In this document: positions 6,598-63,844 of the stretch, piece after piece
How the letters are laid out: each line of letters begins with the position of its first letter
Position numbering within the stretch: the stretch's first letter is position 1
DNA from: a virus
IMG/VR virus record: IMGVR_UViG_3300045988_153198
Length of the DNA: 64,000 nt
Strand: one strand, 5' to 3'
Notes under the pieces: model-generated
What the model was told of the DNA's origin: nothing
Database searches by the model: none
What the model saw: only the letters and a program-made list of their open reading frames with translations
Program-made: the position numbers and the translations under genes

Positions 6598-6612
6598 AAA
6601 ATCGTAAAAAAT

Positions 6613-6639
6613 AAGGGTGTAGCTTAATGCTACACCCTT
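6613..6639. terminator. hairpin terminator between convergent lipoprotein and ssb genes
   Basis: Stem AAGGGTGTAGC/GCTACACCCTT with a 5-nt loop. A clear T-run exists only in the minus sense (plus aaaaaat, 6605-6612). Confidence 0.65.
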
Positions 6640-6642
6640 AAA

Positions 6643-7369: not shown

Positions 7370-7750
7370 TTATGCAAATACCACATCTGCAATTTCCATA
7401 ATGCAACCTTTAAGCATCTCATTATCACTTGATAAGGAACGATTTTCATTTAAAAGATATTCAATCTTTTCCTTGTCACTTAATTCTACTGGGAGTTCTG
7501 CATCTTTTTTTGCATACTCAATCCAAGTATCGAGATTGCTTTTAATTTCTTCGAGTAAACCAGTACGATATTTTAACTCAAAACGATATGAGTCATATTC
7601 GTAATATTCGGTTGTAGTTTCTTCATCACCCATAGACATTGTTTTTGTTAATGTATCTGAGATATTTGTATTGATAATAACGTCACACAGTCCAGCACTT
7701 GTTCTTTCAATAATGACTGATTCTGGTCTTTGATTGCTTTCTGCTCTCAT
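7370..7750 (-). CDS. hypothetical acidic protein (126 aa), translationally coupled to the RT
   Basis: AAGGAGG lies 9 nt upstream of ATG 7750. The ORF overlaps the RT 3' end by 44 nt. No family recognised. Confidence 0.55.
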   Translation of the reverse strand: MRAESNQRPESVIIERTSAGLCDVIINTNISDTLTKTMSMGDEETTTEYYEYDSYRFELKYRTGLLEEIKSNLDTWIEYAKKDAELPVELSDKEKIEYLLNENRSLSSDNEMLKGCIMEIADVVFA

Positions 7751-8849: not shown

Positions 8850-9013
8850 TAAGTTCTTTCTTAATCTCAAAGATGTTTGAATAAAATAATATTCTACTAA
8901 CCTCTGCTGCACCGATGAATTTTTACCAAGCGGTATGGCAAGCCTACTCAATTTGAACTCCAAACTGGTAGGTAGATTGTGTATTAAGATTTTATGAAAA
9001 TTATTAAGAAGTG

Positions 9014-9126
9014 CGAGCAGCAATATTCCACCACGCATTACCGACATCGTTGTTGCAATTCCAATAGACAAGCCCATCGTTAGCACCGTTATTCAAATTA
9101 CCGCCAACGTACACGACACGCAGCCA
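9014..9126 (-). repeat. DGR template repeat (TR)
   Basis: 113-nt match to 9493-9605. In frame it reads LRVVYVGGNLNNGANDGLVYWNCNNDVGNAWWNIAAR, with AAY codons at the variable sites. Confidence 0.9.
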
Positions 9127-9230
9127 CCGCAATACACAAAATCCCGACAAATAAATTACCATCAATCATGTTTTTATAATTGAATCTAGTGCAATAATCA
9201 AGTTACTTTTTAATGTGTTCAAAAATAATA

Positions 9231-9290
9231 GGAGAGATGTTCGTCTTAGTACCGCCAACACTTTACTAATCCGTTTCACAACATCTCTCC
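9231..9290. other. 11-bp inverted repeat with 38-nt loop in the VR-TR gap
   Basis: Arms GGAGAGATGTT (9231-9241) and AACATCTCTCC (9280-9290). The loop contains TACCGCCAAC, which also occurs in TR and VR. Confidence 0.7.
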
Positions 9291-9445
9291 TAAATCTTCT
9301 AATCACCAAATTCAAAAACTTAAAATCCTTATTTTATCCTAGAGATTAATTTTCTCCTTTTCTATATTTTTTTGTAATTCAACTTCTTAATAAATTAACA
9401 TTGAATCTGCTATTTAGTATGATATTGTATCTGCTTTTAATAATA

Positions 9446-9466
9446 CTGGGGGTTGGTCACCCCCAG
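9446..9466 (-). promoter_or_regulatory. GC-rich hairpin just 3' of VR (candidate DGR target-recognition hairpin)
   Basis: CTGGGGG-ttggtca-CCCCCAG, 27 nt downstream of the VR end and 9 nt after the stop codon. No clean T-run follows. Confidence 0.5.
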
Positions 9467-9474
9467 ACCCCCAC

Positions 9475-35000: not shown

Positions 35001-38000
35001 AATAGCTGCTTCATAACCAGAAGTAAGCTCGGACAATTTATCTTTTAAAGAATCCATAGTAACCTGATTAATTGCTTCATCAAGCCCACCATATTCTTCT
35101 TTAAGCTTTTGTATCTGAGACTCCTCAATACCTAAAGCAGAAAGTAATGAATCTGTGGCAGCTTCAAGACTCTCTTTTGAACCTGTATTTGATTCATAGG
35201 CAGCATTGGCAGAAGAGTATGCGTTATATAATTCAATAATATTAGAAGCAGAATCTTTAGCAGCATTTCCTGTTTCAAGAGCAGCATCTCTGGCTTCTTT
35301 TTCTGCATTAACCCATTTACTTATCATTGAAATAAGTCCAGAAATAGCCATAGAAATTCCCATTGTAATAGCCACATTTAATGCCATCGTTGCTGCCTGT
35401 AAAGCGATAGAAGCTGCCTTTGCACCAACTAATGATGTTACATAACCAGCAAGAGAACCCTTCGCACCATTCAAACCAGAAAGATATTTTGCCAAACCAG
35501 AATTTGACTGACCAACTGCTTTTAAGAAATCAGTTTGAGCTAAACCAGAATTTCTACACTGATTATTATAATCATTGATTAAAGCTTTCGCAGTAACCAA
35601 CGATTTAGACTGTGCTTTTGCAGTTACCGCAGCCATTTTCTGCTTTGTAGCAAATTCATCTGTTGATAACGAACTTGCTTCCATACTTGTAACATATTCA
35701 ACCGCAGATTGACTTGCGGTTAAAAGGCAATTCTTTAAAGCTTCTACAGGTGGAGTTCCACTTGCAACCGCAGCTTTAAAATTATTAATACAAGCAATAT
35801 CATTTTGTAACTGAGCATTAAACTCTGTTCCAAAAGAAAATGTAGAATTAGTTTTTAATGCAGCAAAAGCCTGTGAGAAAATATTAGTAATACGTAATCC
35901 AGAAGCAGAAGCTTCATCTTCAATTGTCTTAAAGATGCCGACATTTTTTACAGAAAGAGCAGCAGTAATCCCACCAATTAATGTAGGTAATACTTCAACT
36001 TTATTAATAACTGCATCAAGTCCACTCAGAAAAGAAGTTAATCCTTCCAAAGCACCAGACAGAAAATCGGATGATAAGAAACTATTTGATAACGCTTGCC
36101 AAGCAGCAGTTAAAGTATCCAGATGTCCTTTTAAACTCTGCATGTACTTTTCGTTCTCAGCAGAAGCAGTTCCTTCTGCATCTGTGGCAGCTTGCATAGC
36201 AGAACGTACCTGTTCCCAGTTATTTAACAAGGCAGCAACTTCAGAAGCTCTATTTTTACCAGCAATAGTTTCAAGCAAAGAAGCCTTGTCTGTATCACGC
36301 ATTTCTTTCCATTCTTCATAAATACCATCCATGATTTCATATGTAGATTTAAAATCACCATTGTCAGTCATAATATCTACATTTGATAAATCTTGGATAG
36401 TATCACGAAGTTTACCTGTGTTTGAAATCAAACCATCAGTATCTTCGCCTAATTCTTCAAGGTCTTTTGCTTCTGTACCTCTTAATCTCATGGATAAGAT
36501 TTTTAATGCACTACCAGCTTTGTCTGCATTTTGCGTTACTTCGGTAATACCTGTTGCCATAGCAGAAGTTTCCTGAATAGAGTTTCCAGCAACTTCCATA
36601 GCAGAAGCACATTTGGTTAATGCACTACCAACATCAGCAGCAGTAACAGCGTACTCATTACCAAGTTTGTCGAAAATATCTGCAACATATTCAATAGCTT
36701 TTGTAGAATCGCCATTAAACATATTCATTAATTGGTCTTGATAACCCTTATATGCAGTTACTAAGTTTTCTACAGCAGTAGCGTTATCCAAATCGGTAAC
36801 GTGTTGATACATAGCTGTAATTTCAGAAAGTCTTTCCGCATCACCAGCATTAAAACCAAGTCTTACCCAATCGGCAGTAGAAGTAATAATATCTGATAAT
36901 GTCGCACCGTATTCTTTTGCAGATGAAATCATCTGGTCATATAAAGCACTATATTGATTTGCACTTAAATCAGTAACACGATATAAACCAGTCATAGCGG
37001 TATCGACATCTACAACATTATCATACATAGAACGTAATCCTCGGATTGTCTGTGTAATCATCATTGTTGCAGAGAAATACGTTCCTAATTTAGATAACTG
37101 ATTTTTTAATCTATCACCAAATGTTAATGTAGCTTTTCCAGCCAATTCAGCTTGTCTAGTTATTTCTTGAAATTCAGCTTTAATACTACCAAAAGATGTA
37201 GCATCACAAGATTGTAACCGTACTTTCAATTGGTCAATTTGAGTACCAAATTGACTAGCAGCAGCAGAATTTTCTCTTAACCAAACATCCATTTGTGAAG
37301 AAAGAGCAGTCTTAGCAGATGCTAATTTCTCAGAATTTGCCAATTCTCTTTCTTTCTGAATCATAATATCCACTTGGTTAGTAGTAGATTTTAATGCAGT
37401 TTGATATTGTTGATATGAAGTTATTAAACCTTGCATATCCCCACTGGCTACAGCAGATTTCATATTACTCAAAGCCTGTCTTACTGCATCTATATCTGTA
37501 ATAACACTTTTTCCAGATGTACTTAACTTATTAAAATTAGTTTCAAGCGTAGTCAACTGTTTATCAAAAGAACCAGTGTTTACTTTTACCTGAATATCAC
37601 TAGCCAATTTTGCTTTTGTATCAGCTACTTTAGCATCTAATTGAGCAAGCTTGTCTCTGGTATCGTATATAATATTTCCAAGATTAGTTAATTGGGTAGG
37701 AGATAACTGACCTTGAAAAGAAGTGGCTAAATTCTGATAAGTTGATTGAAGAAGCTGTAATTGACTTTCCAATTCGGCAATTTCATTACTATGTCCTCCA
37801 ATACTTTTCAATCCACCAATTTTTAGTTCTATATTGCTGATTTGCTTTGAAACTGCAAGCAACTCTTTATAAGCAGCTTCTTGCGATTTAATAGCAGAAG
37901 TATCTGCCATTTTTGCATCTAAAGCAGTAATTTTATTATTGGTTGTTTCAAAAGCCCGATTCAAATTATCAAGTTGGTCAGTAGAAAAGCTTCTATTAAA

Positions 38001-38402
38001 TGTTTGATATAAATTATTATAATCTGCCATCAAACGATTTAATTGACCACTTAATTCTGTAATCTGACGAGTATTTTTTGTTCCATCTAACCCACCCATT
38101 TGAATACGGATAGAACTAATTCTTTTTTGCAAATTCATTAAATCACTGTAAGCTCTATTTACTTCAGCAACAGTTCTTTGAATACCTCCAGCATTACCGC
38201 CCGAACCACCATTTAAAGTGATTTTGATATTACTCAAACTTTGAATCTGCTTTTTTATACCATTAATCTGAGATTGTACATTTTGTGTATCAATCTTTAA
38301 TTTAATAGGATTTGTCTGTAAATTATTTATTTGGCTTTTTATGGCATCAAGTTCTCCAGACTTGAGTTCAGCACCAAGTAAGACTTTAAATTCTTCAGCC
38401 AT
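29070..38402 (-). CDS. tail tape measure protein (3110 aa)
   Basis: Long coiled-coil sequence with a TP901-type TMP core (AIEYVADIFDKLGNEYAVTAADVGSALTKCASAMEVAGNSIQETSAMATGITEV...AGSALKILSMRLRG). Five ~22-aa tandem repeats, a Gly/Ser-rich tract and a PSKPST linker. Confidence 0.85.
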   Translation of the reverse strand: MAEEFKVLLGAELKSGELDAIKSQINNLQTNPIKLKIDTQNVQSQINGIKKQIQSLSNIKITLNGGSGGNAGGIQRTVAEVNRAYSDLMNLQKRISSIRIQMGGLDGTKNTRQITELSGQLNRLMADYNNLYQTFNRSFSTDQLDNLNRAFETTNNKITALDAKMADTSAIKSQEAAYKELLAVSKQISNIELKIGGLKSIGGHSNEIAELESQLQLLQSTYQNLATSFQGQLSPTQLTNLGNIIYDTRDKLAQLDAKVADTKAKLASDIQVKVNTGSFDKQLTTLETNFNKLSTSGKSVITDIDAVRQALSNMKSAVASGDMQGLITSYQQYQTALKSTTNQVDIMIQKERELANSEKLASAKTALSSQMDVWLRENSAAASQFGTQIDQLKVRLQSCDATSFGSIKAEFQEITRQAELAGKATLTFGDRLKNQLSKLGTYFSATMMITQTIRGLRSMYDNVVDVDTAMTGLYRVTDLSANQYSALYDQMISSAKEYGATLSDIITSTADWVRLGFNAGDAERLSEITAMYQHVTDLDNATAVENLVTAYKGYQDQLMNMFNGDSTKAIEYVADIFDKLGNEYAVTAADVGSALTKCASAMEVAGNSIQETSAMATGITEVTQNADKAGSALKILSMRLRGTEAKDLEELGEDTDGLISNTGKLRDTIQDLSNVDIMTDNGDFKSTYEIMDGIYEEWKEMRDTDKASLLETIAGKNRASEVAALLNNWEQVRSAMQAATDAEGTASAENEKYMQSLKGHLDTLTAAWQALSNSFLSSDFLSGALEGLTSFLSGLDAVINKVEVLPTLIGGITAALSVKNVGIFKTIEDEASASGLRITNIFSQAFAALKTNSTFSFGTEFNAQLQNDIACINNFKAAVASGTPPVEALKNCLLTASQSAVEYVTSMEASSLSTDEFATKQKMAAVTAKAQSKSLVTAKALINDYNNQCRNSGLAQTDFLKAVGQSNSGLAKYLSGLNGAKGSLAGYVTSLVGAKAASIALQAATMALNVAITMGISMAISGLISMISKWVNAEKEARDAALETGNAAKDSASNIIELYNAYSSANAAYESNTGSKESLEAATDSLLSALGIEESQIQKLKEEYGGLDEAINQVTMDSLKDKLSELTSGYEAAIDELKDKTKDGILKDFGTIDFSKQNGAYKEDAYVKALEKAGFKASDNFSYFGGYQGTTIDIGDTSTLEGIMKAYEKLKDMRTALEEGIGDDYSREELAQNDLYKSINGKIGDFEDEYKNVLDYVDKINDVAAQLQYMDIVKTDGVPQSKEQFDALKQSMVDAAKENQNFVGSQDQINDAITNTLSDIPELSQFFNDVGDSAENATKATKEQLESLKNTFQSNDISDWFDSLSDDDKQLIYEISVKSDDTTLWTLSKWKQELSDMSAAGKTSEESLQSFYDVMNNTEDGNFSDKVNDYLDKVQSLKDALTKIDTGELTDTEKVSLALDFPELAGHTGDIDSLRAAIASLIDTSNQGINEEIDSQIKALGGDGTAAASALESLREMLNAIGNTSGWNFDIDAEIEKFNNLYDAMKESVSGTGLSTEGIKNVEAMFSGLKGYDPSVLFERTEHGIHLNTTALRALQSQYESTTKLGIQERLQDLKQEYNDSAKAVEGLTKGTEAYNKALSDKGLRSTDDILADIENVQTLAAQYEGLTSAYNKWVMAQSAGEEGDMYDNITGSLEDIKKLYDDGLVGTNAFRSAVQMMTNEDLSTANIDKLISVYESGYPTMQKYFQDSSDGCINFLKDVESLNSEWAHMNSDGSWDINFGIGNDEEIAKAISDMTGLQMSTEEVQILMRKLSDYGFDIKLDSAYTSVDELKSKIEETEGKLKELGQEPVDIDVNATDAEAELEKAKGKIQEINDSDASVEVKTAQLDDAYAKIDVLVAKVNQPAFMTIDVSQVDSELQGSLGTLQEYQNAVNNLNALQIKGADTSEIEAAKGKVDELAGKIKDLPAETKTKIGLEADDSVEDIKSKISSGDVKIPVSADTSQAETEISSINGQDVKVNVTTSGNEAIDNLKSAIDGIKDKNVTITATAVGKDSIKGLKTATTNLTNKNVTATATPVGKDGVDALKKSIDSLYNKTVTSTAKVVGTNLVVALKTAIDNLYNKTVSVGANVFGTAAVRSLKSAIDSLYSKTVTATTVTKKVAGVDGTAHANGTAFAQGDWGTKENGVALGGELGQELVVRNGKFFTIGDKSAEFFKYQKGDIIFNAAQTKEIFEKGKITHGTGRGKALAEGTAFSSGSGRFTSGGKTKHTTSGGGGRGSSKSGGGSSGGKSSSSSSSSSKDDKETFDWIETAIDRLERAISRLDLKASSVYKSWGTRNSALKSQISEIGNEIDLQSKGYNRYIQQAKSVGLSADWAKKVREGKVDIDTISDKNLQDKIKEYQEWYEKALDCKDAIEELKETQAELYKTAFDNVATKYEGILGVIDHEKSMLDEYISQSEAKGYITSANYYKAQISAEKKNIKELQNEKANLLTALQNGVNSGTIKQGSEAWYEMVNQIDEVTLSIEQANTTVLELNKSIREVDWQVFDLLQERISYITTEADFLINLMENDKLYDDKGQLTNEGKSTMGLHGVNYNVYMAQADKYAQEIAKIDKDLAKDPYNQDLAQRRQELLELQQEMILAAEDEKEAIRDMVKEGIELELDALQELIDKYTDALDRQKDLYDYQKKVAEQTKEIASIEKQMSAYEGDDSEETKAKIQKLKVSLEDAKSDLEDTQYDKYISDQKQLLDDLYNEYETILNQRLDNLDALITDMIGQINTNAGTISTTLSEKADSVGYTLSESMTTIWDTNSTKITTVLTTYGQNIQNGISSAATTVNSAIGMINTNLATMIGQLNTLANTKAQSAASLSAANSPQSKPSTTPSKPSTPSKPSTPKTGSGNGKAEVGDKVKYNSGIYYEDSYGGGRHGSHNRGGSVYITKIHKGSPYPYHISTGKRLGSGDLGWLKLSQISGYATGVKNLPNSELAWTQEGNKEEYIIRKSDGAILTPIAKKGSVLNHEASGNIWNMANNPSDFIRDNLDLGATQNIPNNGSSQNVYNQNLESVVFSFPNIKNYEQLLREMQKDKNFEKLILSMTIDRVAGKSSLSKRNAIR

Positions 38403-38427: not shown

Positions 38428-38452
38428 ATTAAAAAACGCACCACCAAAGGTG
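38428..38452 (-). terminator. second intrinsic terminator between integrase and TMP genes
   Basis: Stem CGCACC/GGTGCG with a 6-nt loop, then minus-sense TTTTTT. Confidence 0.6.
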
Positions 38453-38463
38453 CGATAATGTTC

Positions 38464-38498
38464 AAAATAAAAAGCGATATGGATTTACTCCATATCGC
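38464..38498 (-). terminator. intrinsic terminator overlapping the integrase stop codon
   Basis: 10-bp stem GCGATATGGA/TCCATATCGC with a 5-nt loop, then minus-sense TTTTTATTTT. Confidence 0.65.
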
Positions 38499-39555
38499 CA
38501 TTTTCAATCTCATCAAGTTCAGCTTTAAAAGATTCTTCTTCTAAAGCTGCTTTCAACTTATCAAGATTTTTCCATTTTCTATCTTTGGCAGTTGCATCAT
38601 TATAAATGTCAACCAAAGCATCACTTGACCATTTCTGTAATTCCTGAATAAGTTCTTTTTCAAGACCAATACTCAGAAGATATGTAGTCCAGAAATGTCT
38701 ACCAGCATGAGGATACCAATGTTTATCAAGAACATCATCCCATTTTTCCATCCAACTACGAATAGTTGAAATCAATGCTGGTTCTCCGTCAGGACGAATA
38801 AATATAAAATTATGGTCTTTTCCAGTTTCTTTCATAATCTGTTCTCTAACTGGAAGCCACTGTTTATAATAAGGAAGAAAAATATCCTTAATTAAGTATC
38901 GAGGAATATACTTTCCGTTTACTCCACGACCTTTAACACGAACATCCTCTGTAGTTTCCAGAAACAATCCTTCAAAAGCAGTATGATTTTCGTCAATCAT
39001 ATCTGTAGTGAATCGTAATAATTCACTTGCTCTTGAACCAGAGGACATAATTAAAGCCAACAAACATTGTTCGTTGACTTTACCCTGTTCGCCAAGCCAA
39101 TCCATTAGCTTGTCCAATTCTTCTTTTTTAAATACAGATTTCTTTCGAACTGCTTCTTTTGGCAGTTTTTCAATCTTAGGAAGTAAATTCCTAAATGTTG
39201 GATATTTTTCATCGTAAATATTTTCAATCCATGTACTAAAGCTTGATAAACAACTATGCATTTGAGCATAACGATTTGAACCCCATTTCAGCTCAGTAAC
39301 ACAAAAATCAAAGAAATCCATTAATTCATATTTCTTTATATCTACAAAAAACTTATTCTCATTCCAAAGAATGTTCCAACACATAAAGATATTTAAGTTT
39401 GAACGATAACTAATTACAGAATTAGGAGAGCGTTTGGTGGCAAAATTTTTCAAAAATCTATCAGCCAACTGTTGATTTTTTGGATTTATTTGAGCAATCA
39501 GTTCTGGTGAAGTAATCACTTTTCTGAATGTCTCTCGACCTTTTCTTCTTGCCAT
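38485..39555 (-). CDS. int: tyrosine recombinase/integrase (356 aa)
   Basis: Catalytic-domain signatures SGSRASELLRF (Arg), HAGRHFWTTYL (HxxR) and LVDIYND (Tyr). An N-terminal SAM-like domain is present. Confidence 0.8.
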   Translation of the reverse strand: MARRKGRETFRKVITSPELIAQINPKNQQLADRFLKNFATKRSPNSVISYRSNLNIFMCWNILWNENKFFVDIKKYELMDFFDFCVTELKWGSNRYAQMHSCLSSFSTWIENIYDEKYPTFRNLLPKIEKLPKEAVRKKSVFKKEELDKLMDWLGEQGKVNEQCLLALIMSSGSRASELLRFTTDMIDENHTAFEGLFLETTEDVRVKGRGVNGKYIPRYLIKDIFLPYYKQWLPVREQIMKETGKDHNFIFIRPDGEPALISTIRSWMEKWDDVLDKHWYPHAGRHFWTTYLLSIGLEKELIQELQKWSSDALVDIYNDATAKDRKWKNLDKLKAALEEESFKAELDEIENGDME

Positions 39556-55193: not shown

Positions 55194-55226
55194 TTTCTCA
55201 GTCCTTTCATTGCATAATTTTAATAG

Positions 55227-55316
55227 CGGAAGCGAAGGGATTCGAACCCCTATGCCGATTCACACCGACCTATCTGTTTTCAGGACAGACCTCTTCACCA
55301 GTTTGAGTACACTTCC
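55227..55316 (-). tRNA. tRNA-Ser: tRNA-Ser(UGA), class II
   Basis: Acceptor GGAAGTG/CGCTTCC, anticodon stem TCTGT/ACAGA, loop CCUGAAA (C rather than U at position 33), long variable arm, T-loop GGTTCGAATCC. Confidence 0.7.
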
Positions 55317-55321
55317 ATAAA

Positions 55322-55396
55322 CATCCGTATTCGGATTCGAACCGAAAACAACCGCTTTAGAAGAGCGATGCTCTAATTCCATTGAGCTATACGGAT
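55322..55396 (-). tRNA. tRNA-Arg: tRNA-Arg(UCU)
   Basis: Acceptor ATCCGTA/TACGGAT, D arm GCTC..GAGC, anticodon loop CUUCUAA. Confidence 0.8.
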
Positions 55397-55399
55397 ACA

Positions 55400-55471
55400 A
55401 GCATTATATGGGAATCGAACCCATATCGTCTGATTGGAAATCAGAAATCATAGCCTTTAGACCAATAATGC
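55400..55471 (-). tRNA. tRNA-Gly: tRNA-Gly(UCC)
   Basis: Acceptor GCATTAT/ATAATGC, anticodon stem TCTGA/TCAGA, loop UUUCCAA. Confidence 0.8.
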
Positions 55472-55474
55472 ATA

Positions 55475-55546
55475 AGCTCCCACACAGATTCGAACTGTGA
55501 CTAATTGATTACAAGTCAAACGTGCTACCATTATCACTATAGGAGC
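55475..55546 (-). tRNA. tRNA-Thr: tRNA-Thr(UGU)
   Basis: Acceptor GCTCCTA/TGGGAGC, anticodon loop CUUGUAA, T arm CACAG-TTCGAAT-CTGTG. Confidence 0.75.
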
Positions 55547-55551
55547 AATAG

Positions 55552-55623
55552 TGGATGTGAAAGGACTTGAACCTTCGATATACTGGTTAAAAGCCAGTTG
55601 CCATACCGCTTGGCTACACATCC
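55552..55623 (-). tRNA. tRNA-Lys: tRNA-Lys(UUU)
   Basis: Acceptor GGATGTG/CACATCC, anticodon stem ACTGG/CCAGT, loop CUUUUAA. Confidence 0.8.
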
Positions 55624-55627
55624 AAAA

Positions 55628-55700
55628 TGGAACTGGTGGGATTTGAACCCACAACCTTCTGCTTGCAAAGCAGTTATTCTCCCATTAGAACTACAATCCC
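55628..55700 (-). tRNA. tRNA-Ala: tRNA-Ala(UGC)
   Basis: Acceptor GGGATTG/CAGTTCC with a G3:U70 wobble (the Ala identity pair). Anticodon loop UUUGCAA. Confidence 0.8.
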
Positions 55701-55703
55701 ATA

Positions 55704-55786
55704 CGGAAAGCATTAGAATCGAACTAAATACCTTTCGGTACGCACTGTTTAGCAGACAGGCTCTATACCATATAGATTTACTCTCC
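55704..55786 (-). tRNA. tRNA-Ser: tRNA-Ser(GCU), class II
   Basis: Acceptor GGAGAGT/GCTTTCC, anticodon loop CUGCUAA, long variable arm GTGCGTACCGAAAGGTAT. Confidence 0.7.
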
Positions 55787-55790
55787 AAAA

Positions 55791-55862
55791 GGTGTATTGA
55801 AGGAATTGAACCCTCAACCATAGAATCACAATCTAGCGTTTTACCATTAAACTAAATACACC
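55791..55862 (-). tRNA. tRNA-His: tRNA-His(GUG) with encoded G-1
   Basis: An extra 5' G pairs with C73. Acceptor GTGTATT/AATACAC, D stem GTTT/AAAC, anticodon loop UUGUGAU. Confidence 0.8.
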
Positions 55863-55866
55863 ATAA

Positions 55867-55939
55867 TGACTTCGGAGGGAATCGAACCCATCAATCCCAC
55901 CTTGAAAGAGTGGTGTCTTAACCATTTGACCACGAAGCC
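55867..55939 (-). tRNA. tRNA-Glu: tRNA-Glu(UUC)
   Basis: Acceptor GGCTTCG/CGAAGTC, anticodon loop CUUUCAA. Confidence 0.8.
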
Positions 55940-56014
55940 ATAATTAAGGTCATTGCCTACCTTAATGCAGTAGGTTTTCATCTGCTATAACTCCGCAAAG
56001 TTATACCATTATTA

Positions 56015-56087
56015 ATGCGGAAGTGAGATTCGAACTCACGACACCCAGCTTATGAGACTGGTAAGCTAACCGCTGCTTTATTCCGCA
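56015..56087 (-). tRNA. tRNA-Met: tRNA with CAU anticodon (Met, or Ile if lysidine-modified)
   Basis: Acceptor TGCGGAA/TTCCGCA, D arm AAGC..GCTT, anticodon stem CCAGT/GCTGG, loop CUCAUAA. Confidence 0.75.
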
Positions 56088-56095
56088 ATAGAAAT

Positions 56096-56164
56096 AGAAT
56101 GTGTCAGATTTGAACTGCTCCCCATGACCCCAAATCACGTATGCTACCATTACACCACACACTC
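56096..56164 (-). tRNA. tRNA-Pro: tRNA-Pro(UGG)-like, short with a weak T stem
   Basis: Acceptor GAGTGTG/CACATTC, anticodon stem CGTGA/TCATG, loop UUUGGGG (G37). Only 69 nt, and I can pair just 3 bp of the T stem. Confidence 0.5.
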
Positions 56165-56199
56165 TAAAATAAAGGTTCTCATTATGTAGAGAAGCACAA

Positions 56200-56282
56200 T
56201 GCTGGTGACGAGATTTGAACTCGTACTGCTATATGCAATTGGGGCTTAAACCCAATGTGTCTGCCAATTCCACCACACCAGC
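56200..56282 (-). tRNA. tRNA-Leu: tRNA-Leu(UAA), class II
   Basis: Acceptor GCTGGTG/CACCAGC, anticodon stem TTGGG/CCCAA, loop UUUAAGC, long variable arm, T arm ACGAG-TTCAAAT-CTCGT. Confidence 0.8.
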
Positions 56283-56287
56283 AAATT

Positions 56288-56367
56288 AGTGAAAGAGAGG
56301 ATTTGAACCTCTACCTTCCGTTGTCTTATTCATAAATTCGGATATTCTACTTTTAAAATACTTTCAC
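56288..56367 (-). ncRNA. tRNA-like element with non-canonical core (possible pseudo-tRNA)
   Basis: Perfect acceptor GTGAAAG/CTTTCAC and T arm AGAGG-TTCAAAT-CCTCT. The 48 nt between them gave me no 5-7-5 anticodon arm or normal D arm. Confidence 0.35.
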
Positions 56368-56373
56368 TATAAG

Positions 56374-56454
56374 TGGGAGAGGTAGGACTTGAACCTACAA
56401 TGCCGAAGCCACGATTTTACAGACCGCTGCAATACCAATTCTGCTCACTCGCCC
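56374..56454 (-). tRNA. tRNA-Tyr: tRNA-Tyr(GUA), class II
   Basis: Acceptor GGGCGAG/CTCTCCC (one C:U mismatch), anticodon loop CUGUAAA, variable arm GGCTTCGGCATT. Confidence 0.75.
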
Positions 56455-56459
56455 ATAAA

Positions 56460-56531
56460 CAGGAAGTTAAGGATTCGAACCCTAATCTTACAGTTTTGGA
56501 GACTGTTGTGTTTCCATTACACCAACTTCCT
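56460..56531 (-). tRNA. tRNA-Trp: tRNA-Trp(CCA)
   Basis: Acceptor AGGAAGT/ACTTCCT, D arm GTGT..ACAC, anticodon stem ACAGT/ACTGT, loop CUCCAAA. Confidence 0.8.
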
Positions 56532-56536
56532 ATAAG

Positions 56537-56609
56537 CTCCCCCAACAGGACTTGAACCTGTGACATTCTGATTAACAGTCAGACGCTCTACCAACTGAGC
56601 TATAAGGGA
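56537..56609 (-). tRNA. tRNA-Asn: tRNA-Asn(GUU)
   Basis: D arm GCTC-AGTTGGTA-GAGC, anticodon stem TCTGA/TCAGA, loop CUGUUAA. Confidence 0.8.
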
Positions 56610-56658
56610 ATAATTAGAATGAAAACATCCAACTTTTATTGAACTACATTCTAATAAG

Positions 56659-56730
56659 CGACTCTATTGGGAATCGAACCCAAATCTTCCGAGAGACAGT
56701 CGGATATAATTGCCTTTATACCATAGAGCC
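56659..56730 (-). tRNA. tRNA-Asp: tRNA-Asp(GUC)
   Basis: Acceptor GGCTCTA/TAGAGTC, anticodon stem TCCGA/TCGGA, loop CUGUCUC, T arm TTGGG-TTCGATT-CCCAA. Confidence 0.75.
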
Positions 56731-56841
56731 AAAGTCGGGTGTATGTACACCCTCATTAAGAAAGGTTAAATATGAATGTAAGAAGTAACCACAAGAATCA
56801 ACAGGTGGTTTTATATAAACAGTTTAACTGCTTATAACAAA

Positions 56842-57156: not shown

Positions 57157-57250
57157 TGGTATAACCTCCTTCTTACTTAAATTTCATGGGAATTTTTTAA
57201 AACTACACAAATTAGCTTGTTTTCCCCCTAATGAACATTTCAAAAAATTT

Positions 57251-57275
57251 AAAAGCCCTTAAAACAAGGGCTTTT
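57251..57275. terminator. hairpin terminator after the RNA polymerase gene
   Basis: Stem AAAAGCCCTT/AAGGGCTTTT with a 5-nt loop. A/T runs on both sides make it potentially bidirectional. Confidence 0.7.
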
Positions 57276-57292
57276 AAAAATTCTTAATTTTG

Positions 57293-57317: not shown

Positions 57318-60167
57318 TTATAAAATTTTTTGACCCGACTTCATTTTGTTTCTTCTTGCTCTTTGAGTCTCTAATTTACGATTTTTTCTATATTCTTCAT
57401 AACAATCTGGACATCTGCAAGTATTATTATTTTTTGTCAACACATCAAACCATTCTCCGCAATCTACACACTGAATACTTTTATGATTATTTTTACATCC
57501 ATTTTCTTTTATATTTTCATAAATGATATTTCCATAACATAACCATAATGCAACTTTGTGTTTACTTTTCTTAATTCCGTATAAATATTTTACAAGTATA
57601 TCGGCTATTTCTGATTCACTATATCCAAATTCAGACAAAGCTGTTTTTATTTCATTTGAAATATTTTTATATAATAAATCCTGTACTATTTGAGAATGTT
57701 TCATTAAATCAGGAGAAAGATTTTCTTTATAATTTAGATTGATTTGAAAATGATGTTTGCTACTCAACTCACAATATTTTACAATCAAGGGGTCAGTCTT
57801 TTCCTTTATTAATTTTCCTCTATCAGTAAAATCAACACGACATTCAATATCGGGATTGTGCATAAGCAACTTATAATCTATAGCTCCTAATTTTAATGAC
57901 CTACAATTAATTCTCGGATTGGGGATAATGCTATTTAGCTTGTTTACAAAACTTGCATTTATATTTGAAACCTGTACTTCATCCTTATCTTTTGCATATT
58001 TGAAAAAATGAGGAACATTCTCTTTGGTGTGAGCAATGATTTTTTCATGAACATCTTTTGGACGTTGCGGTTTATATAAAGTTTTCGCATAATCAATGAC
58101 AAAGTTATTTTCCATACAAAGTAGTTTAACAAGGTCAATAGCTTCTTGTTTTTCCTCTGGTGTTCCTGAAATAAATACTTCACTGTTCCAAATTTTAGAA
58201 ATATTATTACTATACAATCCAATATTTCCACCTGTAAAAGCAGCCACCAATCCATTATAAATATTCTCAGATGTTAGAAGAGTGGGGGATGCTTTTCGCA
58301 TATTGTAATACAAAGGAACAATCCCTTTCATATTTCTTTCTGCGACTTCAATAAATTTCCTGTCAGACACCACAAGAGACTTATCTCCATCTACATCAAA
58401 CTGAAGAATTTTACTAATTAAGTCATGGCAACTGGTATAAATGGCATCAGTATCAAACCATTCTCTTATAAGTTTTTGACGTTCATTTTTACAATACGCA
58501 ATATTTTTTCTTATTGCGTGTTCTTTGTAAAGATGAGGAGAACGTAAACAATCCAACTTATCCGATTTTCTAAACAACCAACAAAATACTTCTTGGTCAG
58601 CCAATAATCCTTCAGGGTCTTTTATTCCCTGAAACCAATATTGACAAGCTGCATAAAAATCAGGAAGTAAAAAAGTATATTTTCCATAAATCTGTAATTT
58701 TCCAGACTTATACTGTTTTATCATGCTATCTTTAGTATTCCTCAGTTGTGTTTTTACATATTCGTCATTCAATAGGTCAGGATATAACTCTACAGACTTT
58801 TGAAACGAATTTTTATGTAAATTATAAGGGGTAATACCAAATGCATCTTTAATGTTCTCAACAGAAGAACAAAGATTTTGCAATTTATTGATAGATGGTT
58901 TTGCAATTTCCAATATCTCCTCATCAGTAATATCAGTTAATGTCTGAAGCATTTGATAATTGATTTTTGCATTTCTTATTCTATCCTCTTCAAGATTAGT
59001 ATATCCAGCAGTACAATGATATTTTTTATAATACTCTTTGTATTGCTCCCATGAATCATAATACTTCCACATCTTAAATTGTGATTTTGTAAATATGATT
59101 TCAATGCCTTCTGTGATAATATCATGTTCTTTTCCATAAATGTCCTTGATGATAGAAGAACAACCATTAACTTCTATAAAATGAACATAATCAAATTTTC
59201 CAAGTAGTCCTTTTACCCAAGGTAGGCGAACCATTCTGTTTTTACCCATATGAGGTAACATCATTCCAGCTCCATCGGTATGAGTAATTGGCACATAATC
59301 TGATACACGCTTGATAGAATAGTCTGCATCATCTACCAAGTCATATGTTCCAAACACATTTGTCTCAAAATCATCAATAACAATCGTCTTGTCAATATCA
59401 AATTCTTCCCATGCATCTGTAGCAGAGTTAGTTAATGCGGTGTATGCCAAATGCTTATTAGGATTATTACCACCTTTTGAATTAATGACATCTATTGTTA
59501 GTCCACACATAATTGTTTTTTCATATTTTTTCCATGTTGATTCTTTAATGAATACAGTTTTCTTTGTTCGAATTTGACCAGCAGAAGAAGTAAAGTAAAT
59601 ATACTTTTCTCCTTTATATGTAAATCCGTAATATATTAAATCTTTGATTATATCAAAATAATATACCTGAACAACCATAAAATCTTCTGACAGTTCATTA
59701 GGTTGTGCGTGTATCATTCTTGTAAAAGAAGAATCAAACACAGAAATTATTTTTTTATCAGAAACATCATTTTCCTTTAATTCACGAATATGATGCTTTC
59801 CATCAGAAACAATATTTGCATTGACTTTATTTTCCAGAAGTTGCAAAAGAGTATCTTTGCTGTACTTGATTTTTCTGTTTTTCATGGCAATTAATTCTTT
59901 AAGGTTGACATATTCATTTCCAAGAGATTGAATACGTTCTGTATCTTCGCCCCAACTTGAATAATCATATTCAGATTTTAACATTGTATCCAAATCACTT
60001 TGCTCAATTCCGTATTTAAAAAGTTCACTGGCTATATCTTTTGATTTTTGCACCAAAGCATTTCTTTCGGAACGCAATTTGTGATTTAACCAGTGTAGAT
60101 GAGCTTCGTGATTACTATAAAAGTTACCTGTATCCACACTATATATATTGATTTGAGTATCTAACAT
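57318..60167 (-). CDS. single-chain two-barrel RNA polymerase of the YonO / cellular-RdRP family (949 aa)
   Basis: Ordered motifs YFTSSAGQIRTKK, THTDGAGMM, RLPWVKGLLG, CLRSPHLYKEH and FDVDGDKSLVV (DxDGD encoded at 58383-58397). C-terminal CVDC...CPDC zinc ribbon and basic tail. Confidence 0.7.
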   Translation of the reverse strand: MLDTQINIYSVDTGNFYSNHEAHLHWLNHKLRSERNALVQKSKDIASELFKYGIEQSDLDTMLKSEYDYSSWGEDTERIQSLGNEYVNLKELIAMKNRKIKYSKDTLLQLLENKVNANIVSDGKHHIRELKENDVSDKKIISVFDSSFTRMIHAQPNELSEDFMVVQVYYFDIIKDLIYYGFTYKGEKYIYFTSSAGQIRTKKTVFIKESTWKKYEKTIMCGLTIDVINSKGGNNPNKHLAYTALTNSATDAWEEFDIDKTIVIDDFETNVFGTYDLVDDADYSIKRVSDYVPITHTDGAGMMLPHMGKNRMVRLPWVKGLLGKFDYVHFIEVNGCSSIIKDIYGKEHDIITEGIEIIFTKSQFKMWKYYDSWEQYKEYYKKYHCTAGYTNLEEDRIRNAKINYQMLQTLTDITDEEILEIAKPSINKLQNLCSSVENIKDAFGITPYNLHKNSFQKSVELYPDLLNDEYVKTQLRNTKDSMIKQYKSGKLQIYGKYTFLLPDFYAACQYWFQGIKDPEGLLADQEVFCWLFRKSDKLDCLRSPHLYKEHAIRKNIAYCKNERQKLIREWFDTDAIYTSCHDLISKILQFDVDGDKSLVVSDRKFIEVAERNMKGIVPLYYNMRKASPTLLTSENIYNGLVAAFTGGNIGLYSNNISKIWNSEVFISGTPEEKQEAIDLVKLLCMENNFVIDYAKTLYKPQRPKDVHEKIIAHTKENVPHFFKYAKDKDEVQVSNINASFVNKLNSIIPNPRINCRSLKLGAIDYKLLMHNPDIECRVDFTDRGKLIKEKTDPLIVKYCELSSKHHFQINLNYKENLSPDLMKHSQIVQDLLYKNISNEIKTALSEFGYSESEIADILVKYLYGIKKSKHKVALWLCYGNIIYENIKENGCKNNHKSIQCVDCGEWFDVLTKNNNTCRCPDCYEEYRKNRKLETQRARRNKMKSGQKIL

Positions 60168-60211: not shown

Positions 60212-60394
60212 TTATAATTCATACATTTCTTCCTCTTCACACATATCATTATAATCTTGTGCAAATTCTTCATAACTATCTCCATCAGTATTCAACACAC
60301 CAGAACGAAAAGTGCGTTTATCTTCTGGAGGGTAAAAATCTCGTTCTGATAATTCATAATAACTATCAGAAATTTTATTTGCTAAAGTATCCAC
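60212..60394 (-). CDS. small acidic protein (60 aa)
   Basis: GTG start 8 nt after AAAGGAG, and 3 nt after the upstream stop codon. Confidence 0.45.
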   Translation of the reverse strand: MDTLANKISDSYYELSERDFYPPEDKRTFRSGVLNTDGDSYEEFAQDYNDMCEEEEMYEL

Positions 60395-60397
60395 ATT

Positions 60398-61282
60398 CTA
60401 ATCTCCTTTGATTCCAATTTTTTGTTTTTTATTTGCTATTTCAGTAATCCAGTATGATTCTGAATCAGTGAGTAGATAATCACGCTCTCGTTTATAGGAA
60501 TTACAAAATATAGTATGATTGGTTTTCCATTTTACTTTTCCATCGTCAGTTATATATTTTGTTCTTCCAATTTCCTCAAACTGAATCAAATGTAATTCAT
60601 CCCTGAGACAATTTACAATTTTTCCAAATGTGCGTACAGACACTCCCAATTCTTCAGCCATATCTTTATAATAATCATTATAAGCTTCAGGAAATTGTAT
60701 TTGCTTTTCCAGAATATCTTCATCTAATCTATACTGATTAGACCTTCGCATAATCGACATTCGTAAATAAGCAAATACCAACAATAACGAAAAACTGTTT
60801 AAATACACATCTTTAGGATTACCCTGATAATTCATAATAGCTTTTATCTCGTCAAGATAAATAATAGCAAATCTATTATGATTATTTTCTTGTGCAGCAC
60901 TAACTGTGTCAAAAGAAGCTTCTACAAATTGTTCCCAAATAGGAGCAGTACCTTTACTTGTTTTCGTAAACACATCTTCTGGATATGTTAAATACCCCAA
61001 GTCTTTCAAGTCACTAATTACACCAAGTAATTTATCATTGATACGTCCTTTATTCCTGTTGGGCTTTTTATTGAACCAATGTATCATTGCATTGATTGAA
61101 AAATATAAACAACTGTCTAATCCTCTTCGAAACATAAAAAATGAATAAGCTGCAACACGCATGACATCCATATCCTTGTTTAAGATAATAGAAGATGGGA
61201 TAGTAATATACTTCCCAGCATCCCCTGTTAATTGCACAGGTATGTATTCACTTTTTGTTTCAGCAATGTTAATCACCTCCAA
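60398..61282 (-). CDS. hypothetical protein, possible replication initiator/DNA-binding protein (294 aa)
   Basis: First gene downstream of the operator/iteron region. The start codon is uncertain (TTG 61282 or GTG 61276). No motif-level identification. Confidence 0.35.
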   Translation of the reverse strand: MEVINIAETKSEYIPVQLTGDAGKYITIPSSIILNKDMDVMRVAAYSFFMFRRGLDSCLYFSINAMIHWFNKKPNRNKGRINDKLLGVISDLKDLGYLTYPEDVFTKTSKGTAPIWEQFVEASFDTVSAAQENNHNRFAIIYLDEIKAIMNYQGNPKDVYLNSFSLLLVFAYLRMSIMRRSNQYRLDEDILEKQIQFPEAYNDYYKDMAEELGVSVRTFGKIVNCLRDELHLIQFEEIGRTKYITDDGKVKWKTNHTIFCNSYKRERDYLLTDSESYWITEIANKKQKIGIKGD

Positions 61283-61345
61283 TCGCCAAGAAAGATAATA
61301 TATTTCACTATCAAATAATCACATTGTAGGTAAAACGCAATAGCT

Positions 61346-61362
61346 GGTACAAATCTTGTACC
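61346..61362. promoter_or_regulatory. operator-like palindrome O1 (GGTACAA-ATC-TTGTACC)
   Basis: Perfect 7-3-7 inverted repeat. The 18-mer AGCTGGTACAAATCTTGT recurs at 61385-61402. Confidence 0.65.
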
Positions 61363-61388
61363 TGCTTTTTCTCAAGGTATGAAAAGCT

Positions 61389-61405
61389 GGTACAAATCTT
61401 GTCAC
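61389..61405. promoter_or_regulatory. operator-like site O2 (GGTACAAATCTTGTCAC)
   Basis: Second copy, with two changes in the right arm. A looser third copy, GGTCAAAAATCTTGTTGCC, lies at 61475-61493. Confidence 0.55.
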
Positions 61406-61519: not shown

Positions 61520-61557
61520 ATTATTATACGAGATTTTTCTCAAATTTAGGAAGTAAT
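61520..61557 (-). promoter_or_regulatory. conserved bipartite promoter-like element (copy B) reading leftward into the early operon
   Basis: Minus-sense ATTACTTCCTA-N13-TCTCGTATAATAAT. The three operator-like sites lie between it and the first gene. Confidence 0.55.
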
Positions 61558-61581
61558 CAATGTAAAGTAATCAAAGTATTT

Positions 61582-61774
61582 GATGAATAGTTAAGAATGA
61601 ATAGATACTTAACGAATAGATACTTATTGGATACTTTATGAATAACTTCGAAAATGATTGAAAATAACGGTAAAAATCATATTGCTTTATTTTGTGCAAA
61701 ATCGAATTAGACGGTAAAAATTTAGAAAGTATTAAAATTAAAGTAAAATATAAATTAACGGAAAGAATTAACGG
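61582..61774. repeat. iteron-like short direct repeats in AT-rich DNA (candidate origin)
   Basis: GAATAGATACTTA occurs twice (61599-61611 and 61614-61626). AACGGTAAAAAT / ACGGTAAAAAT occur at 61667 and 61711. ATTAACGG occurs at 61754 and 61767. Confidence 0.5.
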
Positions 61775-61860
61775 TAGAAGCAAAAATAAAGCTTTATTTT
61801 AAATACTTTTTAATAAGGATTCTGTTAAATAAAATTCTCTGGCAGAGGATTAAAATATAC

Positions 61861-62400
61861 TTGTAGTTAGAATGTAGTTGATATTGGATTGTTTCATATG
61901 ATTAATTTGAGCTATTTGAATTGGTTCTGGTAAGAGAGATAGAGGAAGAATAAAAGAGGGATAATAATATTCTGGATATTAAGTTTGGATATTTGGAACT
62001 ATTTAAGAGTGTTGAAATGGGATTAAATTAGTATTATAAATTAGGCATTTTAGATAGGATAAGATAAGAGGATATTTGTTAGGCTTGAAATAGAATGAGA
62101 TTAGATTGGTATATTGATTGTAGTGTAAATAGGTTAAATTGAATTGTAATTTGGAATATGATTCAGGAAAAACAGATGGTTTCTGATAGATAATTTGGTA
62201 AATAAGAGAGTAAGAGATGAGTTTGTACCGTTGATTGTACCGTTGTGCATAAAGATATATGTTGATATGGTAAAGGGAGAATGTTGGATTGTATGTTGAG
62301 ATAATGTTAGGTTATATGTTGATGATTTTTAGTAATTTGGGATGATTTAGAATGATTTAGAATGAAAGATAAGTGTAAAAATTTTTTTGGTTGGGAAGAG
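61861..62400. other. C-depleted, G/A/T-only block
   Basis: My manual count is about 15 C in 540 nt, against abundant G. No credible ORF. Confidence 0.85.
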
Positions 62401-62580
62401 TTTTATCAGACAGTCGGCTGCTGGTCGGCTCAAATCGAAAAATATTTGTAAAATAGCCCCCTACCCCCTTATTTTAAGGATTTAATTTTTTCAATGTGAA
62501 AGACTGTAATTTTTTCACATTCATTTTATATAAATACCCCCTCCAATAGTATAGTAAAATGTTTCATGTAGTATTCATAA

Positions 62581-63240
62581 CTATATGTATAACAAATATA
62601 GAAGTTTTCAGAAAATAATAACGATTATTATTTTATTCTTTCCAGCTCAAAAAATTTATATAGATACTTCCATAACCCCACAAATTAAACCCCTTTACAC
62701 CCTCCACCCCCTTCCAAACTTTCCAGAACTCCACCCACTCCCACATAAAAAAGCAGCTAAAACCCACAAAAAACTCCTATTTTTCCATACTTTCCCCCAC
62801 TTTTATATAAATATAATCCCATATAATACCATACAACCCCACAAATACACCCAAACAAGCCCACAAACAACTCTATAAACTCCACTTTATACCCTTATAC
62901 AGTCCACCACTCCACCCCATACCATACCCCATAAACCCAAACAATAAAGCAATTATATTTTCTTTTCTTCTTTTCTCTTTTCCTTCTTTCCAGCTCCACC
63001 CTTGAAGCCCTTTTATATCCCTTGTATGCTGCCTTATATCCCTTTTATATCATTGTACAACCTTATACACCTATACAACCCTTATTATATACCCTTATAC
63101 CCCTTTAAAAGCCTTTAAAGCCCTATACAGTCAATACAACCCCATAACCCTATATAATATACATTAAAGCAATAAAAGCCCTTTAAAGCTCAAATAAACC
63201 CCATAGAAAAGAAAAGCAGAAACAAACTATATATAATAAT
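62581..63240. other. G-depleted, C/A/T-only block (mirror of 61861-62400)
   Basis: My manual count is about 30 G in 660 nt, against abundant C. Many CC(C)TT(T)TATA(C/T) short repeats. The only ORF there is low-complexity. Confidence 0.85.
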
Positions 63241-63303
63241 CTGGAAAGAATAAAAGCAGAAAAGCAGCTCTAAAAATAAATTGAAAAAAATATAAATTTG
63301 TAG

Positions 63304-63332
63304 TTGACAACTACATAAAAGCATGATAATAT
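63304..63332 (+). promoter_or_regulatory. sigma-A-type promoter P1
   Basis: TTGACA (63304-63309), 17-nt spacer, TAATAT (63327-63332). Confidence 0.65.
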
Positions 63333-63454
63333 AAAGCTACAAACAAACAAGACAACGCAAGAAAACAAAGCGAAGTTTTGAAGCACCTTGAAAATATCAT
63401 ATAAAAGCAGTTGAAAAGTACAAAAAACTTTTTCAAAAAAGTTAAAATAACTAC

Positions 63455-63483
63455 TTGACAACTACATAAAGATATGATAGTAT
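63455..63483 (+). promoter_or_regulatory. sigma-A-type promoter P2 (duplicate of P1)
   Basis: TTGACA (63455-63460), 17-nt spacer, TAGTAT (63478-63483). The flanks TTGACAACTACATAAA..ATGATA.TATAAAG.TACAAA are shared with P1. Confidence 0.65.
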
Positions 63484-63658
63484 AAAGGTACAAAGAACAA
63501 AGCGAAGCAATCAAGCGAAGCGAAGTTGTTTGTAAAACCTTTGAACCTTGATAATTTAATAAGTGCCTGAAGTAGTCCGTATAAAGTGTGACTTGTCCAC
63601 TTTAGAAAGTAACGCTTCGGGAAAGTGAATATTCCTTTTCCTTTTATCTTTTTACTAA

Positions 63659-63675
63659 CTGATAAGGTTATACAC
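63659..63675 (+). promoter_or_regulatory. conserved 17-nt motif, copy e (CTGATAAGGTTATACAC), plus strand
   Basis: In sense orientation for the plus-strand gene at 63845. Its first 8 nt are complementary to CTTATCAG about 85 nt downstream. Confidence 0.55.
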
Positions 63676-63844
63676 TAAAATAGTTGAGTGCTACCCATGT
63701 GGTTATAAGTTGCGTATATACTATTTGCAATACGTGTAAAATCTTATCAGGGTTAAACATACCGAAGGCGGTCACAAGTCCGATTGTAAAAATGTGAGTG
63801 GCTACAAAGTAAAAAGAGATTATAAAAAAGGAAGGTATAAAATT

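Follow-up and report, generated by a model that had tools for sequence, protein, structure and literature searches.

A member of the YonO family of single-chain RNA polymerases encoded upstream of the late genes of an uncultured gut or rumen phage

A 64,000-nucleotide stretch of IMG/VR record IMGVR_UViG_3300045988_153198 (the window, by which we mean the whole stretch at its full length) comes from an uncultured gut or rumen phage and encodes a further member of the known, experimentally characterised YonO family of single-chain RNA polymerases (RNAPs). The gene occupies positions 57318-60167 on the minus strand, where the open reading frame (ORF) listing of the window gives a protein of 949 aa with an ATG start; a ribosome-binding-site-like AAAGGTG sits 7 nt 5' of this ATG. 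Because the uninterrupted ORF extends for 2.85 kb in a window of 32% G+C and has thousands of homologues, it is not a chance ORF. The best overall explanation, which we regard as highly probable, is that the protein is an orthologue-grade relative of YonO from the Bacillus prophage SPbeta, with two double-psi beta-barrels forming one active site, and that it acts as the RNAP for late genes.

An earlier note, made from the letters of the window, had placed the protein in the two-barrel family that contains YonO and the cellular RNA-dependent RNA polymerases (RdRPs), and profile matches, homology to YonO, a structural model and invariant residues all agree with this placement. With a gathering cutoff of 23.8 bits, the Pfam model RdRP (PF05183) scores 36.7 bits (E 2.7e-9). 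PHROG 8308, to which no function is assigned, is matched end to end (E 8e-245), and no NCBIfam model matches the protein. Of 50,697 phage records searched by tblastn with the protein, 39 contained a relative. YonO of SPbeta/SPBc2 and its Bacillus relatives align over query residues 2-922 (97% coverage, 42.9-43.4% identity, E=0), the best match is Clostridium phage D-1873 (52% identity), Psychrobacillus phage Perkons matches at 42%, and remoter relatives (23-28% identity) occur in Enterocloster, Thomasclavelia and c-st phages. A MAFFT alignment with YonO and the D-1873 and Perkons proteins is collinear throughout. Since phmmer with the protein matched nothing among PDB sequences, no solved relative is detectable by sequence in the PDB searched. 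A 45-sequence profile had RDR2 as its best PDB sequence match at a non-significant E of 0.27; the alignment nevertheless paired SSAGQIR and DVDGD with the SASQLR and DLDGD of RDR2.

The protein contains all five peptides quoted in the earlier note, in the order claimed and all within invariant blocks of the MAFFT alignment, followed by the zinc ribbon and basic tail that it had described:

Residues 194-203: included in the peptide YFTSSAGQIRTKK
59208-59282, minus strand: predicted first-barrel active-site segment HTDG...RLPWVKG, residues 296-320, holding D298, R314 and K319 and recognised by spacing and alignment invariance; THTDGAGMM is placed from H296 and RLPWVKGLLG from R314
58530-58547, minus strand: LRSPHL segment, residues 541-546, with R542 and P544, the counterpart of the R-x-P of two-barrel RNAPs; the peptide CLRSPHLYKEH covers L541-L546
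58380-58400, minus strand: FDVDGDK, residues 590-596, with the catalytic Asp triad D591/D593/D595; FDVDGDKSLVV runs from F590
57402-57470, minus strand: C-terminal CxxC...CxxC zinc ribbon, C900/C903/C919/C922
57321-57401, minus strand: basic helix after the zinc ribbon, in a C-terminal tail of 27 residues, 10 of them K or R

Eight residues have been proposed to be universal in two-barrel RNAPs (Ruprich-Robert and Thuriaux 2010). From order, spacing and invariance, we infer that their counterparts here are D298, R314, K319, R542, P544, D591, D593 and D595, of which the first three would belong to the first barrel and the other five, with the Mg-binding triad among them, to the second. All eight positions are 100% invariant in each of four alignments, comprising four phage proteins, 57 close homologues, 45 diverse sequences and 116 sequences down to 33% identity; the conservation of the DxDGD aspartates that the note had expected in orthologues thus extends to 116 homologues. 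The spacing of five between R314 and K319 equals that of R738/K743 in QDE-1, and the spacing of two between R542 and P544 equals that of QDE-1 R962/P964 (Ruprich-Robert and Thuriaux 2010). The triad aligns with FDNDGDK of SPbeta YonO, in which the 3D>3N triad mutant is inactive and RNA extension is abolished (Forrest 2017), and, in the non-significant profile alignment, with DLDGD of RDR2. The four ribbon cysteines are at least 90% conserved in the 116-sequence alignment and all are present in YonO; the Pfam Zn_ribbon_8 match at this site is weak (E 0.012). These data bear directly on whether the protein could be a degenerate or non-catalytic relic with a structural or DNA-binding role. We found nothing specific to this protein in favour of such a relic, and its intact, invariant mapped catalytic residues, its uninterrupted ORF, the occurrence of the exact sequence on at least 20 contigs (up to 268 kb) and a 489-member cluster at 90% identity make it extremely unlikely.

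The predicted structure leads to the same family. An AlphaFold2 model built from the 116-sequence alignment reached a mean predicted local distance difference test score (pLDDT) of 94.4 and a predicted template modelling score of 0.88, with residues 815-824 as the sole stretch under pLDDT 50. A first model from the 57-sequence alignment (at least 68% identity), which had a pLDDT of 64 and a disordered catalytic core, was discarded. Clusters of beta-strands encircle the first-barrel motifs (261-360) and the second-barrel motifs (495-600), and at the C-terminus two beta-hairpins at 895-910 are followed by a long helix. Together with whole-chain Foldseek matches, the strand clusters of the model point to two double-psi beta-barrel domains in one chain. 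Nine PDB entries are matched significantly by Foldseek, each of them a cellular RdRP (E 7e-18 to 6e-12). Maize RDR2 (7W82) ranks first, with E 6.7e-18, a template modelling (TM) score of 0.50 and 869 alignment columns, and the others include Arabidopsis RDR2 (7RQS, 7EU1_M, 7ROZ) and QDE-1 (7Y7T, 7Y7P); the top matches have TM scores of about 0.45-0.50 over 800-960 columns at a probability of 1.00. Fragments of Pol II Rpb1 rank next in the PDB search and are not significant (E about 2, about 80 columns). Searched against BFVD, the model is matched best by proteins of uncultured phages that carry the label RdRP (E 5e-32 and 3e-28).

Read by itself, the fact that eukaryotic RdRPs are the sole significant Pfam and PDB matches, with GenBank homologues labelled RNA-dependent RNA polymerase, would suit a genuine RdRP that copies RNA of the phage or its host, with counter-defence or the amplification of a regulatory RNA as possible purposes. 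The biochemistry of YonO speaks against it. YonO, which is 43% identical over its full length and has the same order of genes around its own, is strictly DNA-dependent as an RNAP, strongly prefers DNA over RNA templates, is processive, shows no detectable transcript cleavage and is required for late-gene expression, such that deletion of yonO silences the late genes of SPbeta (Forrest et al. 2017, Nat Commun 8:15774). The phage genome is moreover double-stranded DNA and RNA-silencing partners are not evident, and we consider an RNA-copying enzyme very improbable. Homologue labels in GenBank conflict among themselves, reading "RNA-dependent RNA polymerase", "DNA-directed RNA polymerase" or "hypothetical protein" (MT325768, OQ326496, PQ571309); those that name an RNA-dependent enzyme derive from the Pfam name and not from data.

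The earlier note had called the family rare and poorly characterised in phages. A HMMER scan of 1.84 billion cluster representatives (clusters at 50% identity) returned 1,260 relatives at E <= 1e-3, of which 362 reach E <= 1e-30, a word-indexed search returned more than 4,000 proteins (the top 120 at 66-99% identity), and 79 genome loci carry relatives; with this many clusters and loci, the family is therefore widespread in phages of Bacillota and not rare. As to characterisation, the YonO enzyme has been studied biochemically (Forrest 2017), and the description still holds mainly for its promoter, accessory factors and structure; in the literature searched there was no study after 2017 on the YonO promoter or structure. 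The nearest genome matches, at 64-66% identity, are contigs of up to 156 kb in gut and rumen metagenome-assembled genomes, mostly assigned to Clostridia or Lachnospiraceae, prophage copies at 54-57% identity lie in isolates of Mediterraneibacter hominis, Lientehia hominis and Faecalicatena contorta, and copies from Paenibacillus and Bacillus are 38-46% identical. The window phage probably has a gut clostridial host.

Several relatives carry an interrupted or split polymerase gene; that of the window is intact. Goe11 and Goe14 have annotated yonO_1 and yonO_2 genes with another gene in between, a GIY-YIG nuclease lies under the RNAP match in BUCT083, an ORF separates the N- and C-terminal halves in phage c-st (L005), and in four genome loci (L070, L074, L077 and L083) the matches stretch over 3.1-5.2 kb.

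The surroundings of the gene, given here in the direction of its transcription, provide the second line of evidence:

61339-61359 and 61382-61402: two 21-bp direct repeats, 43 bp apart, with the palindrome GGTACAAATCTTGTACC in each (95% identity, family D16)
60398-61282, minus strand: ORF of 294 aa, 5' of the RNAP gene and co-oriented with it, function unassigned
60212-60394, minus strand: acidic ORF of 60 aa between the 294-aa ORF and the RNAP gene, function unassigned
57248-57278, minus strand: terminator-like hairpin (14 bp and a T-run) directly 3' of the RNAP stop codon
56842-57156, minus strand: HU/IHF-like DNA-binding gene, counterpart of SPbeta yonN (Pfam Bac_DNA_binding, PHROG 379)
56731-56841, minus strand: conserved non-coding element of 111 nt, from the HU gene to the first tRNA
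55226-56730, minus strand: 16 tRNA genes forming the leader of the late block (15 by ARAGORN, one by Rfam at 56288-56367)
6643-55193, minus strand: co-directional late block of 48.5 kb with at least 36 ORFs (ORF map), the presumed target of the RNAP

The RNAP gene thus lies upstream of a late operon of packaging and structural genes, with the HU-like gene in between. Pfam Bac_DNA_binding matches the HU-like protein at 32.9 bits against a cutoff of 22.4. Among 81 related loci drawn from species-representative genomes, at least 42 have an HU-like ORF on the same strand within 3 kb 3' of the RNAP gene (median 228 nt), and only one has such an ORF 5' of it. The same linkage of RNAP and HU genes occurs in SPbeta, D-1873, Perkons, PMBT24 and TR-TP1, and in many lineages homologues of YonG and terminase follow a few kb 3' of the RNAP gene. 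Exonuclease, a YonG-like protein, large terminase and portal could be identified by PHROG and Pfam labels in the late block of the window, where the YonG_N/YonG_C and terminase Pfam labels were read on the near-identical contig L007. In SPbeta the order is yonP, yonO, a stem-loop, yonN (HU), a 1.7-kb non-coding gap, yonK, yonJ (exonuclease), yonG and yonF (terminase), and D-1873 and Perkons are arranged similarly, so that the order of RNAP, HU, leader, exonuclease, YonG, terminase and portal is common to the window and SPbeta (yonO, yonN, leader, yonK/J, yonG, yonF). GC skew is negative throughout the 48.5-kb block.

SPbeta provides the functional precedent for this arrangement: 37 of its late genes need YonO, apparently as one operon with a single start 3' of yonN and 5' of yonK (Forrest et al. 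2017). Homology to YonO and synteny with SPbeta make it most likely that the window protein transcribes late genes as a DNA-dependent RNAP insensitive to rifampicin. By analogy, its catalytic activity, DNA template preference, timing, target genes and start site would all be expected to parallel those of YonO, and the phage-specific promoters and host-independent transcription of part of the genome proposed in the earlier note would be consistent with the same homology and synteny. The likely course of events is that host RNAP would transcribe the unit of the 294-aa, 60-aa and RNAP genes, perhaps with the HU gene, early after infection or induction; the paired repeats at 61339-61402, which resemble operators, may control this step. 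Next, the phage RNAP would initiate 3' of the HU gene, between it and the tRNA array, and would transcribe the 16 tRNAs, the packaging and head genes and possibly the entire 48-kb co-directional block.

The interval in which such a start would fall holds the conserved 111-nt element, whose parts are arranged as follows:

56820-56830, minus strand: hairpin 1, followed by TTTATATA
56787-56810, minus strand: hairpin 2, longer and followed by a T-rich run, terminator-like
56759-56778, minus strand: the T/C-rich block CATTCATATTTAACCTTTCT, also given as TTCTTTTCATTCATTTTT...ACCTTTCT
56737-56752, minus strand: hairpin 3, GC-rich

This architecture is kept in 10 loci of the window's clade, in which the HU proteins, where detected by tblastn, are 32-53% identical to that of the window. 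RNAalifold recovers hairpins 1 and 2, with compensatory changes at 8 of the 17 predicted pairs in a rough alignment. Within the window the block is found a single time. When loci other than the training loci and four near-identical contigs were searched with an nhmmer profile of it, there was no significant match, and SPbeta was not matched; the element is specific to the window's clade. Its layout makes the element a reasonable place for the early unit to end (at a candidate pair of terminators) and for a candidate late promoter or leader to follow. We consider it possible, though doubtful, that the element is a YonO-type promoter from which the RNAP would transcribe the 16-tRNA array as a late leader, with HU as an architectural cofactor. 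If this were true, a two-barrel single-chain RNAP would be making tRNAs, and an abundant clade of gut phages would offer a comparative route to the YonO promoter, a question left open by Forrest et al. (2017).

The tRNA array sits where SPbeta has its YonO-dependent start and a non-coding leader of about 1.2 kb. From the primer-extension primers in the supplement of Forrest et al. (2017), we placed the SPbeta start site at about 9305-9499 of its locus (L001), which is about 280-480 nt 3' of yonN and about 1.2 kb 5' of yonK. The number of tRNAs at the leader position varies from 0 to 16 across clade members, and the near-identical contigs L007 (10680-10951) and L008 (7057-7328) are without 12 of them. 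The junction in these contigs falls within the GGGTTCGAATCC T-arm common to tRNA-Trp and tRNA-Ser, and either the tRNAs are truly deleted or the assembly has collapsed. Rfam found no large known RNA in the non-coding leader between yonN and yonK of SPbeta, and solely a DUF3800-VIII motif (L001 10381-10446). A drum RNA lies a few kb 3' of the D-1873 polymerase gene (L002 12353-12460), and by Rfam both motifs are absent from the window.

Two further candidates at the leader were set aside. The sequence ATGAGGGTG, shared with the stretch around the SPbeta start site, recurs only in SPbeta-like genomes and in near-identical relatives of the window, and we regard it as anecdotal. On the plus strand, the reverse complement of the block (56759-56790) reads as a ribosome-binding site within AGAAAGGT, 5 nt and an ATG with which an ORF of 21 codons begins; an antisense ORF is not favoured because L016 lacks the ATG and the covariation of the flanking stems is that of a structure and not of codons. 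Similar short antisense ORFs are found in most clade members, L016 excepted, and may be incidental or a small antisense gene.

Several points weigh against the late-gene polymerase explanation. The identity of the protein to YonO is just 43%, it has about 110 extra residues, and several GenBank homologues carry the RNA-dependent label. No promoter could be recognised in the window by reference to SPbeta, and the motif candidate common to the window leader and SPbeta has no statistical support; the strongest resemblance to SPbeta, between its positions 9340-9356 (L001) and the block of L028, amounts to 15 of 17 matches by eye. Strong terminator-like hairpins also lie within the 48-kb block, at 38.4-38.5 kb and at 6.6-26 kb, and a single 48-kb transcript therefore needs read-through, or further units exist. 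No strong terminator-like site was found on the coding strand from 55.2 to 38.5 kb. Between 6.6 and 26 kb there are 18 terminator-like sites on both strands against 5.7 expected, and eight of the strongest nine (at least four G-C stem pairs) are on the coding strand.

These hairpins, which break up the late block, also count in favour of an active DNA-dependent RNAP whose main job is a different one, such as transcription of the tRNA array only, the making of replication primers or R-loops at 61.5-63.7 kb, or transcription of middle genes. The tRNA array directly 3' of the RNAP region, and the repeat-rich, origin-like region and possibly DNA-binding 294-aa protein directly 5' of it, would fit such a role as well. 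Yet the linkage between RNAP and packaging genes is kept across the family, tRNA-less loci included, and the phage genes silenced by deletion of yonO in SPbeta are the 37 late genes. We judge another main job to be unlikely and retain late-gene transcription as the favoured role.

On the 5' side of the RNAP gene, the order is paired repeats, 294-aa ORF and 60-aa ORF, after which the window continues with the RNAP gene, its hairpin, the HU-like gene, the 111-nt element, the tRNAs and the late block. The 294-aa and 60-aa ORFs have no significant Pfam, PHROG or NCBIfam match and are kept 5' of the RNAP gene in the window's clade only (29-47% identity). The paired 21-bp repeats 5' of the 294-aa ORF look like repressor operators for the RNAP operon. 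Beyond them, a non-coding region of 2 kb (61550-63700) has a strong strand asymmetry, numerous short repeats rich in C (among them CCCTTATAC and ACAACCCCA), and a tandem duplication of about 150 nt (copies at 63250-63351 and 63401-63502). Each copy includes a sigma-70-like promoter with an extended -10 on the plus strand (TTGACA-17-TAATAT and TTGACA-17-TAGTAT). The region could serve as an origin, as a pac site or for divergent early promoters; the proposed pac region of SPbeta lies upstream of yonP.

Within and beyond the late block, the window has further features:

38437-39555, minus strand: tyrosine-recombinase/integrase-like gene in the middle of the late block (PHROG 1, E 6e-29)
38437-38499, minus strand: two strong terminator-like hairpins after the integrase-like gene and before the 3110-aa ORF
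29070-38402, minus strand: giant ORF of 3110 aa in the structural region
12519-20174, minus strand: giant ORF of 2551 aa in the structural region
7707-11328, minus strand: diversity-generating-retroelement-like unit at the far end of the late block
7707-9086, minus strand: reverse transcriptase (Pfam RVT_1)
6612-6640: bidirectional terminator-like hairpin where the Tn7-like module and the late block converge
1356-5823, plus strand: three consecutive genes, for a Mu-transposase C-terminal (TnsB-like) protein, TniB (AAA+) and TniQ

The unit at 7707-11328 resembles a diversity-generating retroelement. Of the two copies of a 121-nt repeat, one lies next to the reverse transcriptase (9005-9125) and the other (9485-9605) at the 3' end of a 617-aa ORF, and at 14 of the 18 mismatches in the repeat core the copy proximal to the reverse transcriptase has A where the ORF copy has another base. 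By their gene content, the three genes at 1356-5823 are classed as a Tn7-like transposition module.

What is known of the enzyme class is unchanged by this protein. The YonO family, known from Bacillus prophages, now also takes in a clade found repeatedly among uncultured phages of the gut and rumen, whose hosts are probably clostridial. Public records give the exact protein no name and leave relatives of it unnamed or label them "RNA-dependent RNA polymerase", and a high-confidence model is now available for a family without a sequence-detectable entry in the PDB searched. YonO, a minimal relative of cellular RNA polymerases, is interesting from an evolutionary point of view. The HU linkage, the tRNA-filled leader and the clade-specific element are places in which to seek the promoter and cofactors.

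Among known systems, the closest is SPbeta YonO, with which the window protein shares the Asp triad, the first-barrel D/R/K, the R-x-P, an SSAGQIRTKK motif and the C-terminal zinc ribbon, and whose gene is likewise followed by a terminator-like hairpin (the annotated stem-loop), an HU-like gene and, downstream, the yonJ, yonG and terminase homologues. The window protein is about 110 residues longer, mostly through an N-terminal coiled coil (about residues 48-100), has three short insertions near 664-673, 786-799 and 826-838, and reads DVDGD in its triad motif where YonO reads DNDGD. The two systems also differ in the leader (a 16-tRNA array as opposed to a non-coding leader of about 1.2 kb), in the 5' partners (the 294-aa and 60-aa ORFs as opposed to yonP) and in the host (probably a gut clostridial bacterium as opposed to Bacillus). 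The likeness to QDE-1 and RDR2 consists of a fold match, membership of PF05183 and, by the proposed mapping, eight catalytic-core residues, whereas sequence identity is 12-14%; eukaryotic RdRPs are mainly RNA-templated and act in silencing pathways, and the window enzyme would be expected to be DNA-templated like YonO. Multisubunit RNAPs (bacterial beta/beta' and Rpb1/Rpb2) have a two-barrel active site of the same logic, to which one barrel contributes D-x-D-x-D and the other basic residues, but they give no significant sequence or fold match to the window protein (phmmer on the PDB, Foldseek). According to the literature, YonO-type enzymes are one chain of about 110 kDa compared with about 400 kDa for the multisubunit enzymes, and have no detectable trigger loop or flap/SBHM insert. 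T7-type, N4 virion, crAss-like virion and jumbo-phage RNAPs are comparable in role, in that each is a phage-owned polymerase that frees part of the transcription programme from host RNAP. In the literature, the T7 and N4 enzymes have an unrelated right-hand polymerase fold and the jumbo-phage enzymes are multisubunit and beta/beta'-like; the model of the window protein has RDR2 and QDE-1 as its sole significant matches among solved structures.

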